36,364 nucleotides of DNA, from IMG/VR virus record IMGVR_UViG_2711768060_000011. The stretch is one strand, 5' to 3'. Positions 28,294-36,364 of this stretch are shown piece after piece. A model generated the notes under the pieces. It saw nothing but the letters and a program-made list of their open reading frames with translations, was not told the DNA's origin and did not search any database. The DNA comes from a virus. Its lineage: Duplodnaviria; Heunggongvirae; Uroviricota; Caudoviricetes. The number at the start of each line of letters is the position of its first letter. Position 1 is the stretch's first letter. The position numbers were made by a program, and so were the translations under genes.

Positions 28294-28880
28294 GCGTTAG
28301 TTTCTCCACAACCAGAAGCAATCGACGCCACGACGCCCGGAGCTGCACACTCGCGGGCGTCATTACTTTCTGAAATGCAAAAAATTTTGTAGACAAGTGC
28401 TGCATGCTCCTGCAGCTTCGAAATTGAGAGATACAGCTCGTCGTTAATTGCTGTCTTCTCATGCGGTTCCACTACGCCGTCTTCGATTGCTGAACGAATC
28501 TGTTTTGAATAACTGCCGATCTGTTCAATGACTTCCAGCAGACGCTGGTTAATATCGGCGTTGTCCACATCCTCGACGTCAGGAAGAGACACAAAGACGC
28601 CATTTGCAGACTGCGCCACAGCATCAGCAATGAAGTGAGTGCCACCAGCACGCTGTAAAACCATTGCCCATCCCAGCGGGAAAATCTGATCGCCATCTGC
28701 ACGAAGGCGGTTGAATAAAGCGTTCTCTGTTACATCCAGCCAGTCAGCGGCTTCAGCGTAACCCCCCGGCAACGCCGCGATAGTTTTTCTGACAGCTTTC
28801 ACGTACCACTCAGGCTGTTTTTCTATTTTCCAGTGATGCTTACCCACGGCTATCTCCTTAAAACTGTGGTTACTTTTCAT
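28290..28880 (-). CDS. CII/YdaT-like phage regulatory protein (putative)
   Basis: ORF 28290..28952; start placed at the internal Met (28880) to limit overlap with cro; immediately downstream of the cro-like gene. Confidence 0.45.
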
Positions 28881-29118
28881 CTGATGAATCTTTAATCTTT
28901 TGAAAAATATCTGGACGTAATTTTTCTTTTGATATGCCAGTGGTCTTTTCAATGAATATCGAGAGCTTTGCAGGGGGACGCTTTTCTCTGTTCAACCAGT
29001 TCCAGACATGTTGTTGCTTTACTAAATGACCGCTGCTGGCTGTGAGCTTCCGAGCCAATTCTGATTGACCACCAGCCAGAGCGATTGCCTCCGATAAGGC
29101 TAATTGCTCAGGTGTCAT
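28870..29118 (-). CDS. Cro/YdaS-like HTH regulator
   Basis: 82-aa ORF divergent from the cI-like repressor; HTH-like segment SELARKLTASSGHLVKQQHVWNWL. Confidence 0.7.
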   Translation of the reverse strand: MTPEQLALSEAIALAGGQSELARKLTASSGHLVKQQHVWNWLNREKRPPAKLSIFIEKTTGISKEKLRPDIFQKIKDSSDEK

Positions 29119-29138: not shown

Positions 29139-29230
29139 GTTAAGTTGTTACGAGCTGCAAGAATACAACATTAACAACTTTCACCACAACTTTTAGGTGT
29201 TGGAAAGCTAAAACATAAAGTTGTAACCTC
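29139..29230. promoter_or_regulatory. right operator/promoter region between the divergent cro-like and cI-like genes
   Basis: Three copies of AAGTTGT(T)A in both orientations (TAAGTTGTTA 29141-29150, TTAACAACTT 29171-29180, AAAGTTGTAACC 29217-29228) within the 135-bp divergent intergenic region. Confidence 0.6.
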
Positions 29231-29253: not shown

Positions 29254-29940
29254 GTGAAAACACTGGCAGAACGATTAAAGATAGGTAGAGAGAAAGCTGG
29301 CATGAGCCAAGCTCAACTAGCTGAAAAAATTGGACTTTCACAACAATCTGTAGCCAAAATAGAGAATGGCGAAACTCTACAACCGCGCAAAATTAAAGAA
29401 ATTGCAAAAGTTTTAGGTGTATCACAAAAGTGGTTACAACTTGGTATTGAAGACAACGCATCCATACCTGATCTTGTTGTAAAAGAAGCAGAAAGCACCG
29501 CATTAGACCCCGATATTTTCGTAAACATTCCTGTTTTAGATGTCGAGTTATCGGCAGGTAACGGATGTCTGGCTGAAATAGTTGAATCAGCTATTGACTG
29601 GTTTCCGTTAAGAAGAGCAGATTTGAGAAAATCTGGCGTATGTGCATCTAATGCCAAGATCGTACAAATATGGGGGAACAGTTTATTACCGGTTCTCAAT
29701 AATGGAGATCTTGTTGCCGTTGATATTTCTCAAACCGTTCCTATTCGTGATGGCGATCTTTATGCCGTACGAGATGGTGTATTGCTAAGGGTTAAAATAC
29801 TTATCAACTTACCTGACGGTGGCTTGATTCTTAGAAGCTTCAACAAAGATGAGTACCCAGATGAAATACTCACCTTTGAAGATAGACGAGCCAGAATTCA
29901 TGTTATAGGTAGGGTATTCTGGTCATCGCGAACTTGGTAA
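29254..29940 (+). CDS. cI-like prophage repressor (HTH_XRE plus S24 LexA-type autopeptidase); GTG start
   Basis: N-terminal HTH (MSQAQLAEKIGLSQQSVAKIENGE), Ala-Gly cleavage site (LSAGNG), C-terminal S24-like Ser (GNSLLP) and Lys (LLRVKIL); AGAGGG Shine-Dalgarno before GTG at 29254. Confidence 0.9.
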   Translation: MKTLAERLKIGREKAGMSQAQLAEKIGLSQQSVAKIENGETLQPRKIKEIAKVLGVSQKWLQLGIEDNASIPDLVVKEAESTALDPDIFVNIPVLDVELSAGNGCLAEIVESAIDWFPLRRADLRKSGVCASNAKIVQIWGNSLLPVLNNGDLVAVDISQTVPIRDGDLYAVRDGVLLRVKILINLPDGGLILRSFNKDEYPDEILTFEDRRARIHVIGRVFWSSRTW

Positions 29941-30942
29941 TGCATCGAAAAGCATTTCTTCAGAAATAATTTTAAGTTTTGCACCATTATCATCCCTATA
30001 AGATATAGCCTTTTCGATCTTCCTTCCGTGACTAGAGAATTTCCAATCACGGGAGGAAAGCGTCCCAATTACTAAAAAATCCAACTTTTGAGTAATTCCA
30101 CTACTGATGTTCCCACCAGCATTTTTAATCAAATTTTCAACTACGGCTCTCTTTCCTGCAACAAAAGTGCCTGTAAGACAATAGGTTTTACCCTCTAACT
30201 CTATCGAAGCCCCTACATCAATAGGCAGCCTGGTCGCCAAACCATCCACCACCCCACTTTCCAAGTCACATCCTGTGAAGTCTACTAATGCCTTATGTAG
30301 AGTTAAACTCTCATCTTCAGTAATAACACCATCTTTAAGAATTTCCTTTACAAGTGCATAAAGTTTTTTTCCTGGGTAGTTGTTCTTCAAAGCTCCATTT
30401 TGCTCAAGCCACCAATTAAGATATCTTATTTCTTCTTGAGTTAAGTTCCGATCAGCAATTAATCCTTTACATAGTCCATTAAGTAAATGGACATCTACAT
30501 CCTTGGAGTAAAAATCAATTTCAGGGATATCAAGAATTTCCCTCTGTATTTGGAGAAGGCTATTTTTAAGGTCATCACGTTCTTCTGATGTGATTATTCC
30601 ATCCGCAAGAATATCCGACACCCGAGCAGATAGACTTTTTATAACTCCATTATTGATAATCTGCTTTGCTTCAAGTAACCATGTATCTAAGTAAAGAACC
30701 TCCTCTTCACGGACAACTCCATCTGCAATGATTCCATCAATGATGCTAATCAAGTTAGCAAATAACTTGTCCCGGTTTCGTGTAATTAAAAGCGTAAAGC
30801 GCGTCTTCCATACAACCTCCTTTTTTTGATAATCCTTGCGCTCCTTGGCTACTCGTTCAAACCACATAAAGTTGTTGGCAACATTCAAAACCACAACTAA
30901 ATTACAACTTAAAGGTGTTAAGACAACGAACAGGCAGGACAC
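29923..30942 (-). CDS. repeat-containing protein with C-terminal BRCT domain; likely true start at ATG 30867
   Basis: C-terminal ~90 aa (KTYCLTGTFVAGKRAVVENLIKNAGGNISSGITQKLDFLVIGT...) resembles the LigA-type BRCT domain; four ~45-aa repeats sharing ...L.DG.IT.EE...L...L; the first codon at 30942 is GTG and the N-terminal extension overlaps operator-like motifs. Confidence 0.6.
   Translation of the reverse strand: MSCLFVVLTPLSCNLVVVLNVANNFMWFERVAKERKDYQKKEVVWKTRFTLLITRNRDKLFANLISIIDGIIADGVVREEEVLYLDTWLLEAKQIINNGVIKSLSARVSDILADGIITSEERDDLKNSLLQIQREILDIPEIDFYSKDVDVHLLNGLCKGLIADRNLTQEEIRYLNWWLEQNGALKNNYPGKKLYALVKEILKDGVITEDESLTLHKALVDFTGCDLESGVVDGLATRLPIDVGASIELEGKTYCLTGTFVAGKRAVVENLIKNAGGNISSGITQKLDFLVIGTLSSRDWKFSSHGRKIEKAISYRDDNGAKLKIISEEMLFDALPSSR
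30866..30930. promoter_or_regulatory. OL-like operator cluster upstream of the plus-strand early operon
   Basis: Same motif as the right operator region: AAAGTTGTTGG (30868-30878), CCACAACTAA and ATTACAACTT (30891-30910). Confidence 0.5.
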
Positions 30943-31016
30943 CCACGAAGTAGCCCGCCCGGTACGTACGAAGACCGGGATGATTCGTTAGCGGATGATT
31001 TCAGTGGAGAGAATAG

Positions 31017-31325
31017 ATGAATGAGCAGGATTTGAAGCATGTGATCGCATTGTTGCTGGAAGACGCTAAACGTTTGCAGCAGATAGAGCCAAATGCAGGC
31101 ACTGAGGCCCGTATTTTGTTAGCAAAACAGGCATTAAAGACTTGCGGGGCGCAAGATCCTGATCGAACCAAGTTCATGAATTTCATGGCTAACACGATCA
31201 CCCCCCTGCCATGCAATGGAGAGAGGGTGAGCCGTGTTTATCACGACACAATGGTTAAGGCATTAAGAATCGAGCTTGATGGGCTTAGGCGTAAGATCGT
31301 GATGAACAAAATCGTTGCCAACTAA
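31017..31325 (+). CDS. hypothetical early protein (first gene of the plus-strand early operon)
   Basis: 102-aa ORF with GGAGAG Shine-Dalgarno, starting ~90 bp after the OL-like operator cluster. Confidence 0.4.
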   Translation: MNEQDLKHVIALLLEDAKRLQQIEPNAGTEARILLAKQALKTCGAQDPDRTKFMNFMANTITPLPCNGERVSRVYHDTMVKALRIELDGLRRKIVMNKIVAN

Positions 31326-31604
31326 GGAAGCAGACGGAAGTAAGCATGCGCTTTGTTCAAATTTGCAGACAAATATATTTGCGTCAACACCAGCACTGTT
31401 AGCAATGGAAAAAGTTTGATCAAGGATTTGTTGGCAGTTCATTGTGCTTTTGAGGATATATCCCTCTGGAATCAGTCTGCAGCAGCTATCGTCAGACTCT
31501 TTGATTGTTTTCTGGTACAGAAAGTTAAGCATTAATTCTTCAAATTTTTTGGTCTGTTCGGCTGTTGCTTCAAACAGACGAACGTGAACATAAAACTGGT
31601 TCAT
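31263..31604 (-). CDS. hypothetical protein (antisense to the early operon; coding status uncertain)
   Basis: ORF 31263..31640 with internal ATG at 31604 preceded by AGGAA; AT-rich; 3' end overlaps the plus-strand 102-aa ORF by 63 nt. Confidence 0.25.
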   Translation of the reverse strand: MNQFYVHVRLFEATAEQTKKFEELMLNFLYQKTIKESDDSCCRLIPEGYILKSTMNCQQILDQTFSIANSAGVDANIFVCKFEQSACLLPSASLVGNDFVHHDLTPKPIKLDS

Positions 31605-31883
31605 TAGGTTTCCTTGCTGGCTGTGTGAGAACTCCAGCATACCACCGAGCCTGAAGTGGTGAAAAGACAGGCAATAGTTTCATTGCTGTGTGTAGTCTTG
31701 GCGGTACCAGCTTGTACCCTTGCTTCCGGCTGGTACCGTCCTTTTTACAAAACAGAGAAGAGCATCACCGGACGACGGGCTCATAACCCAATCCATCCGG
31801 GCGGCGGCCACCACAGGTGTTCTTCTCTGTTTTGTGGAGAAACTAATAGGCCTTGCAGGGTCGATATGATGAGGAGCAGCAAA

Positions 31884-35311: not shown

Positions 35312-36364
35312 ATGAATACAAATGTAGGGCAGATCACATTAATTGATCTAATTTCAATGCTTGAGAGAAAAGAACTAATAATTAACAAGGATTATCAGCG
35401 CGGAAATGGAATATGGCCACCATTTGCAAAGAGTTATTTCATAGACACTATTCTAGAAAATTATCCTTTCCCCAAAATATATTTATATCAAGCATTTGAC
35501 AGGACAAACGAAAGGCCAATTAAAGAAATTGTTGATGGCCAGCAACGAGTAACAACTCTCGTTGATTTTTATAAAAACAAATTTGCACTTACTTCGGCAT
35601 CGAAGAAGTATTCTGGCATGTATTTTAATGATTTGCCCGATGATGCAAAAAGATGTTTTATTAGTTATCAAGTTGAAACATCCACAGTTTATTCAGCAAG
35701 CAGGGCTGAATTACTCGAAATGTTTAGACGAATGAATGCTTATACATCTCCACTAACATCAGCAGAAAAACGGCATGCTACTTTTCAAGGTGCATTTAAG
35801 TGGTATATCGTTGAAAAAGCAGATACCCACGCTGAGCTTTTAGAGATTTATAATATATTGTCACCCAAAATATTAGCCAGAATGGGTGATGCAGAATTTA
35901 TCTCAGATATGGCAATACTCATTGATAGAGGGCTTTGTTCAAAGTCGGCACCTGCAACCGAAGCTATTTATAAAAAATACGATGATGATTTTCCTTTAGA
36001 GAATATCTATAACGAGAGAATTGATTATTTCTTCAATTTATTGGCGGAAGATTTTTCCGAATTACGTAATTCATTTATGATGAAATCGTATGTTGTTCAC
36101 TCATTATTTTGTGCTATTACCGCATTAAAATTTGGTTTCCCCGGAAGTGATGAACTTGAAAATGAACTCGGTTTCACGGCTAACCCAAACTTTGATGTAA
36201 ATCCTTCCCGTGTAATTCCGATTCTCTTAGAGATGGCTGATGCCCATGAAATTCAGGACGAAGATGGCCCTTATGCAGCCTATGTAACAAGTTGTTTATC
36301 ATCAACAACCAAGCTACCACAACGAACCACGCGCACAAAAGAACTGATTAAAGCATTCTTATGA
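35312..36364 (+). CDS. DUF262 (GmrSD N-terminal / ParB-like) domain protein, stand-alone
   Basis: 350-aa AT-rich ORF with AGGAGA Shine-Dalgarno; N-terminal DYQRGNGIW and DGQQR motifs diagnostic of DUF262; no HNH/DUF1524 motif seen in the C-terminal half; stop is the last codon of the window. Confidence 0.75.
   Translation: MNTNVGQITLIDLISMLERKELIINKDYQRGNGIWPPFAKSYFIDTILENYPFPKIYLYQAFDRTNERPIKEIVDGQQRVTTLVDFYKNKFALTSASKKYSGMYFNDLPDDAKRCFISYQVETSTVYSASRAELLEMFRRMNAYTSPLTSAEKRHATFQGAFKWYIVEKADTHAELLEIYNILSPKILARMGDAEFISDMAILIDRGLCSKSAPATEAIYKKYDDDFPLENIYNERIDYFFNLLAEDFSELRNSFMMKSYVVHSLFCAITALKFGFPGSDELENELGFTANPNFDVNPSRVIPILLEMADAHEIQDEDGPYAAYVTSCLSSTTKLPQRTTRTKELIKAFL

Follow-up and report, generated by a model that had tools for sequence, protein, structure and literature searches.

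In bacteriophages lambda and 434, CI repressor bound at OR2 of the right operator region (OR) blocks the early-right promoter (pR) and stimulates the promoter for repressor maintenance (pRM). In the 434 protein, Gln-Gln-Ser residues are used to recognize the outer ACA(A) positions of the operator ACAA-N6-TTGT. In the lambda layout the left operator region (OL) with the early-left promoter (pL) is expected directly past cI and its accessory gene. Here we analyze a cluster of operator-like repeats in a 36,364-nt stretch of viral DNA (IMG/VR record IMGVR_UViG_2711768060_000011), hereafter called the window, which carries a lambdoid prophage next to icd. Its genes follow the lambda layout with cI and the early-left operon in the same orientation. 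A preliminary description of the window had proposed that the cluster is OL/pL, located about 1.7 kb from OR and upstream of a plus-strand operon that ends in xis-int. The distance and the position were confirmed, the genes of the operon running from 31017 on, and the assignment itself is well supported because the OR dyad is repeated in the cluster, a conserved sigma-70 promoter reads into the xis-int operon, and the cluster occupies the equivalent place, past cI with or without one cargo gene in between, in about 80 related immunity regions. We estimate the probability that region 30832-30918 is the OL/pL of an E. coli lambda-like prophage with a 434-like repressor at roughly 0.85.

The motif on which the preliminary description was built does recur: AAGTTGT is found at 30869-75 on the plus strand and at 30904-10 on the minus strand, a copy with one mismatch (AAGGTGTTA) occurs at 30912-20, and the heptamer is present four times in OR (29142-29224). 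Reading OR and OL side by side showed what in fact repeats, namely a 15-bp dyad with the pattern ACAAC-N5-GTTGT. When one mismatch was allowed, six matches to it were obtained in 36 kb where 1.27 were expected, a number reached in none of 100 shuffled sequences. Four of the six are the sites starting at 29186 and 29210 in OR and at 30861 and 30904 in OL. The distribution of 8-mers derived from OR gave the same picture, as the richest 70-bp segment in the whole 36 kb is 30859-30928, holding 12 of them; in simulated sequences (n = 200) the mean maximum per 70 bp was 5.6 and the highest value 10. The OR operator motif is also repeated in the form of a 12-mer, ACATAAAGTTGT, which is common to the OL-distal operator and the OR site at 29210-29224. 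The recurrence of the motif between OR and OL is real and not a product of chance.

The OL-distal operator ACCACATAAAGTTGT (30861-30875) deviates at one position from ACAAC-N5-GTTGT and is located between two back-to-back -35 hexamers. One of these belongs to the predicted pL, which was called independently by a consensus scan as TTGGCA-17-TAAATT on the plus strand. The -35 (30875-30880) and -10 (30898-30903) hexamers are separated by a 17-nt spacer, and the last base of the distal operator coincides with base 1 of the -35. The start site would be at about 30910-30911, where it would be covered by the OL-proximal operator ACAACTTAAAGGTGT (30904-30918). Judged by its sequence, this is a sigma-70 promoter directed away from cI and into the early-left operon. 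An extra half-site, ACAAC (30893-30897), is conserved and abuts the pL -10. The same arrangement occurs in OR, as ACAAC-N6/7-ACAAC-N5-GGTGT. A third dyad was sought between and beside the two sites at both OL and OR, and conserved half-sites were all that was found.

The OR sites are located in the 135-bp intergenic region between a cro-like gene and cI. Operator ACAACTTTTAGGTGT (29186-29200) is situated between the -35 of pR (TTGTGG on the reverse complement) and the -35 of pRM, whereas operator AAAACATAAAGTTGT (29210-29224) is inside the pRM spacer. The predicted pRM consists of TTGGAA at 29200-05, an 18-nt spacer, and a -10 TAACCT at 29224-29, which is conserved as TAnnnT in alignment A5 and is 23 nt away from the operator at 29186-200. 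In a lysogen CI dimers would bind the OL and OR sites and shut pL, which would be released after RecA-stimulated self-cleavage of CI. Cro is expected to act at the same sites as CI. Once released, pL would drive the plus-strand early-left operon, which contains in this order a 102-aa open reading frame (ORF; 31017-31325, PHROG 12693, no assigned function), yfdP, yfdQ, yfdR, xis (33841) and int (34082).

Comparison with related loci was based on a CI search, which yielded 85 loci from E. coli prophages and IMG/VR contigs with CI proteins of 57-100% identity; the set also holds contigs labelled Providencia, Proteus, Serratia and, in one case, Pseudomonas. For each locus we determined where downstream of cI the 8-mers derived from its own OR are most concentrated. 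In nearly all loci the peak is 850-930 bp past the cI stop codon, directly beyond a convergent gene for a BRCT-domain protein. The cluster is found beyond the 3' end of cI and is inherited together with the immunity region. The peak is at 145 bp past cI in a class with CI about 93% identical, in which the BRCT gene is reduced to a 45-codon remnant. This class (loci L036-L046, L049-L051 and L073) carries an internal BRCT deletion.

An alignment of 16 lineages (A3), covering the same range of CI identity, shows a constant order of elements. The minus-strand start codon with its ribosome binding site (RBS) is followed by ATCCTT, 17 variable bases, AATCAA or GTTCAA, and the distal operator; then come the pL blocks, which are TTGACA, about 12 variable bases, ACAAC, TAAATT and the proximal operator. 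The spacers vary in sequence and are fixed in length. The distal operator is invariant or nearly so in the 16 lineages. The pL -35 is TTGACA in 38 of 42 unique related contexts, and TAAATT or TAGATT is present 22 nt past the distal operator in all 42. The proximal operator occurs as ACAAC-TTAAA-G(G/A)TGT or in the flipped form ACACC-TTAAA-GTTGT; at no locus is it a perfect palindrome. Eight of 43 unique contexts have the flipped version ACACCTTAAAGTTGT. Such flipping is as expected if the sequence is a two-fold symmetric protein site that is kept at intermediate strength.

The CI-type repressor (29254-29940, plus strand) has an HTH_3 and an S24 peptidase domain. Its N-terminal domain was most similar, among solved structures, to the repressor of phage 434 (E 3.7e-14). 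The two proteins have homologous helix-turn-helix motifs in which helix 3, the recognition helix, opens with Gln-Gln-Ser (SQQSVAKIENG in CI and TQQSIEQLENG in 434), and this helix is conserved in all relatives. Because the 434-like Gln-Gln-Ser helix is retained, CI fits an ACAA-type half-site. The 14-bp ACAA-N6-TTGT operator typical of 434 was not found, since all four sites are 15 bp long with the pattern ACAA-N7-TTGT. When CI was compared with sequenced phage records the best match was below 45% identity, so that none of them carries this repressor. A megablast search of the immunity region against phage records gave a match of just 49 bp, and no phage in that collection carries the region. 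We interpret it as the OL/pL of a previously uncharacterized immunity type with 434-like operators; the kind of switch is an ordinary one.

The most unusual feature of the neighborhood is the structured leader with which the predicted pL transcript would begin. This element of 63 nt (30926-30988, plus strand) contains helix P1 (30926-30 paired with 30984-88) and helix P2 (30958-62 paired with 30975-79). In an alignment of 40 distinct sequences (A4), 96.3% of the cells were paired as compared to 70.3% in shuffles, and nine of the ten base pairs showed changes on both sides. The covariation score was 0.649, versus 0.149 for shuffled alignments and at most 0.13 when the partners were slid by 1-3 columns. 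In P1 entire helices are replaced (CGAA/TTCG, CATC/GATG, CCACC/GGTGG) and the loops are near-invariant. The wobble cells, 5 G-U against 7 A-C, do not settle the strand. We infer the plus strand from the position of the leader after the promoters and from the downstream genes, which are co-oriented with it.

The leader sequence is present, without annotation, in SfV, SfII, SfIV, ST64B, ZF40, YeP1-3, phiNP, mEp460, AH07, other phages and many prophages. None of these phages shares the operators described here. In SfV and ST64B the leader is located about 80-120 bp after cI and ahead of yfdP/Q/R-type genes. Leader loci collected with a conserved core pattern represent 57 different upstream sequence families. 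A promoter match at 9 or more of 12 positions was obtained in 30 of the 57 families and in none of 57 control segments. In 31 of the families a distance of 20-31 nt separates the end of the -10 in the best match from a conserved GGCAGG downstream of it (29 nt in the window). The leader is therefore a marker for the 5' end of early-left transcripts in many immunity types, which places pL where the cluster lies. It is widespread, occurring with more than 50 different immunity regions, and would sit at the 5' end of such transcripts in a large group of enterobacterial temperate phages.

Rfam gave no match over the leader in searches of 5 kb and 131 bp with E up to 10. A covariance model of the leader (R1) detected one copy per phage, with no second copy in the window and none downstream of pR, and it gave no match in the 21-33 kb region of HK022, where the put sites lie. 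A nut- or put-like reading of the leader was considered and rejected as far as copy number and sequence are concerned, given the single copy in the window and in related loci and the missing match in HK022. A nutL site and an N-type antiterminator gene were not found downstream of pL, where the 102-aa ORF and the leader take their place; the combination of nutL and N is not universal among lambdoid phages. A search for an obligatory downstream partner of the leader was also negative, since yfdP and yfdQ are present in 39% of the loci and yfdR in 54%. Literature searches on the leader sequence and on leader RNAs of ST64B and SfV returned nothing relevant. The most economical guess is that the leader acts in cis on the early-left transcript, with protein-independent antitermination, protection from Rho and transcript stabilization as candidate roles.

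On the minus strand the second of the two back-to-back -35 hexamers, TTGAAC (30855-30860; TTGATT in many relatives), directly abuts the distal operator. A 17-nt spacer separates it from a predicted -10, AAGGAT (30832-30837), and the two elements form a candidate leftward promoter for the BRCT gene. In 35 of 41 unique contexts TGn precedes this -10. Its distance to the distal operator is exactly 23 nt in all 41 contexts, identical to the pRM distance of this phage, whereas the distance from the -10 to the RBS varies by indels. The position of the leftward -10 is therefore set with respect to the operator and not to the start codon, as one would expect for a promoter element. In the class with the BRCT remnant this -10 has become AAGGGT and no longer has a TG before it, which is consistent with relaxed constraint. 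A conserved leftward promoter for the BRCT gene thus probably exists.

The BRCT gene itself (29923-30811, minus strand; PHROG 3989) is convergent with cI and is frameshifted in the window. According to the preliminary description the operator cluster overlaps the start of this gene, which was not borne out: the cluster lies 50-107 bp upstream of ATG 30811. The ORF used there was the longest one, of 339 aa from GTG 30942, and its upstream frame lacks an RBS. In the closest relatives the gene encodes 296 aa and starts at an ATG equivalent to 30811 in the window, after a strong RBS, AAAGGAGGT (AAGGAGG), and both the relatives and PGAP annotation indicate this RBS and start (30809-30823, minus strand). 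A 2-bp deletion near 30777-30780, seen in the window only, ends the ATG frame after 18 codons and joins the remaining frame to GTG 30942, which explains the 339-aa ORF. The gene is intact (292-296 aa) in about 65 related loci, none of which has the deletion, and the undeleted version is present in all 47 complete E. coli genomes that carry the segment. The deletion would be either a private frameshift, making the gene a pseudogene, or a sequencing or assembly error. As the coding overlap is an artefact of the frameshift, the cluster is in promoter DNA and not in coding sequence. In annotation the 339-aa 'BRCT' ORF is to be treated as a frameshifted pseudogene with its true start at 30811.

Every BRCT homologue with 73% identity or more is encoded convergently with a CI of this family. 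The protein carries its BRCT domain at the C-terminus, and PHROG 3989 is a family without assigned function. The only PADLOC match is a weak one to the candidate PDC-S48 (E 2.4e-7), and any role in defence would be putative. A literature search on a BRCT prophage gene gave nothing relevant. At their 3' ends cI and the BRCT gene share 18 bp (29923-29940) with no evident terminator between them, and transcripts from pRM and from the leftward promoter at OL would therefore collide.

Could the cluster be a chance or compositional recurrence without a regulatory role? The heptamer alone is marginally enriched, with 10 copies against 4.9 expected and 3 of 100 shuffles reaching 10, and no enrichment of the dyad was seen when two mismatches were allowed (22 matches versus 16.3 expected), so that only the search with at most one mismatch is informative. 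The second-best peak of OR-derived 8-mers corresponds to a near-palindrome inside cI, AAGTGGTTACAACTT (29428-42), which resembles paired half-sites. We rejected this sequence as an operator: it encodes KWLQL and varies freely among the relatives at synonymous positions, and this lack of conservation identifies it as a by-product of coding. Against chance stand the statistics of the one-mismatch dyad and of the 8-mers, and in particular the conservation of both dyads and both hexamers, which are kept base for base down to 57% CI identity between spacers that are scrambled. These comparative data effectively refute a chance origin. A different objection is that the cluster serves another regulator, Cro only or CII, and not CI. 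Genes for a Cro-like and a CII-like protein are indeed present, and a sequence by itself cannot name the protein that binds it. However, the ACAA(C) half-site suits the 434-type Gln-Gln-Ser helix of CI, CI must act at OR, where pRM and pR are bracketed by these same sites, and in lambdoid phages Cro and CI share their operators. We consider an operator for another regulator very improbable.

Several observations weigh against the assignment as OL/pL with a shared operator. The promoters are predictions that were called from consensus and conservation. In the window the pL -35 TTGGCA is weaker than the TTGACA of most relatives (E. coli RM7190, a relative in which the BRCT gene is intact, also has TTGGCA), and the leftward -10 is preceded by CGC (30838-30840) where the relatives have the stronger TGC. 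Taken together with the frameshifted BRCT gene, these slightly weakened promoters may mean that this copy is in decay. Only 1 nt of the pL -35 is covered by the distal operator, so that the proximal site may be the main basis of repression. Center to center, the OL dyads are separated by 43 bp, as compared to 24 bp for the OR dyads. With this spacing cooperativity at OL may differ, and no clear third dyad was found. Downstream of pL neither an N-like gene nor a nut site is present, unlike in lambda. Finally, the argument for activation of the leftward promoter is one of geometry alone.

The preliminary description had further suggested that the repressor gates both the early-left operon and the cargo gene. 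The operator does appear to be shared by back-to-back promoters, and CI probably touches both, but the sign of control of the cargo gene may be the opposite of what was proposed. The leftward elements look like a weak promoter whose -35 abuts an operator centered about 42 bp upstream of the start, a geometry that matches pRM, which is activated by the repressor in lambda and 434. The distal operator would then be bifunctional, helping to repress pL and at the same time contacting or stimulating RNA polymerase at the cargo promoter, and the BRCT gene would be expressed in the lysogen. We regard activation as the more likely sign of control at the cargo promoter, and put forward activation by CI as a tentative possibility that falls short of even odds. 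In the version of the preliminary description CI represses both pL and the BRCT gene, making the cargo an early lytic gene that is silent in the lysogen. As the distal operator is immediately adjacent to the leftward -35, a protein bound there could block access of sigma region 4, and an extended -10 promoter may need no activator. Still, the 23-nt distance between operator and -10 is that of pRM, which must work with CI nearby, neither the leftward -10 nor the start site is covered by a dyad, and lambdoid accessory genes between cI and pL, such as rexAB, are typically expressed in lysogens. Dual repression is thus unlikely. A leftward promoter that is real and constitutive, with the shared operator acting on pL only, would agree with the extended -10 in most of the contexts, as extended -10 promoters are able to work without a good -35 or an activator. 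What speaks against CI-independence is the spacing, which is invariant to the operator in 41 of 41 contexts and variable to the RBS and suggests placement relative to the operator. This explanation appears doubtful to us, though less so than dual repression. A joint reading, in which a bifunctional distal operator represents a duplication of the pRM-like circuit at OL and is combined with a cis-acting family of 63-nt leader RNAs, is likewise proposed with reserve.

If the bifunctional operator is true, expression of the cargo would be tied to lysogeny. Confirmation of the shared operator would indicate that prophages couple accessory or defence genes to lysogeny outside the cI operon. The operators, the promoters and their register are now defined precisely enough for the direct design of footprint and reporter experiments.

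Among the neighboring genes, the Cro-like regulator (28870-29118, minus strand) belongs to the YdaS family and is the first gene of the rightward-type operon. The homology of E. coli genomes to the window typically stops at about 30992, from which it follows that cro, OR, cI, the BRCT gene, OL and the leader are exchanged as one module. Within the early-left operon a minus-strand gene, ymfI (31263-31640), shares about 60 bp with the 102-aa ORF at the 3' end of the latter, and pL transcripts would cross it in antisense. The 245-bp gap between ymfI and yfdP contains a weak DicF-like Rfam match (31687-31741, plus strand) with 19.4 bits against a gathering score of 48 and E 0.93. The gap is a plausible place for a prophage small RNA, and the match is probably noise. 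Directly after int and facing icd, a DUF262-type gene (35312-36364, plus strand) runs past the end of the window. It matches the PADLOC models NsnA (E 8.5e-32) and PD-T4-2_A and is likely defence cargo at the prophage end.

The locus can be compared with several known systems. Like OL/pL of lambda, the cluster is downstream of cI, repeats the OR motif and overlaps a strong promoter directed away from cI and toward the recombination, xis and int genes. The distance between OL and OR is about 1.7 kb, as compared to 2.4 kb in lambda. Lambda OL has three 17-bp operators, whereas here two clear dyads 43 bp apart and one half-site are found, and where the N gene and nutL follow pL in lambda a different structured leader is present. 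The system resembles 434, whose repressor is the closest PDB entry to the N-terminal domain of CI, in that the recognition helix starts with Gln-Gln-Ser and the outer operator bases are ACAA/TTGT. It differs in that the operator is 15 bp (ACAA-N7-TTGT, or ACAAC-N5-GTTGT) instead of 14 bp (ACAA-N6-TTGT) and in that Gln33 of 434 is a lysine in CI.

The predicted leftward promoter resembles OR2-pRM of lambda and 434, being a weak promoter back-to-back with a strong lytic promoter and having an operator that abuts its -35, with the operator center about 42-43 bp upstream of the inferred start. Unlike OR2-pRM, the arrangement occurs at OL and would serve a cargo gene instead of cI, and its activation is putative. 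As with the accessory genes rexAB of lambda, sieB and stk of 933W, which are expressed in lysogens, a non-essential gene in the immunity region is co-inherited with the repressor. The protein differs from these in its C-terminal BRCT domain, its membership of PHROG 3989 and its weak match to a PADLOC candidate. Whereas rexAB is co-transcribed with cI, the accessory gene here is on the opposite strand and has its own predicted promoter. The leader, finally, resembles nutL of lambda and putL of HK022 in that a structured RNA opens the pL transcript and is conserved across differing immunity regions. It differs from both in having no boxA or boxB, in occurring as a single copy with none downstream of pR, and in having no adjacent N-like protein.

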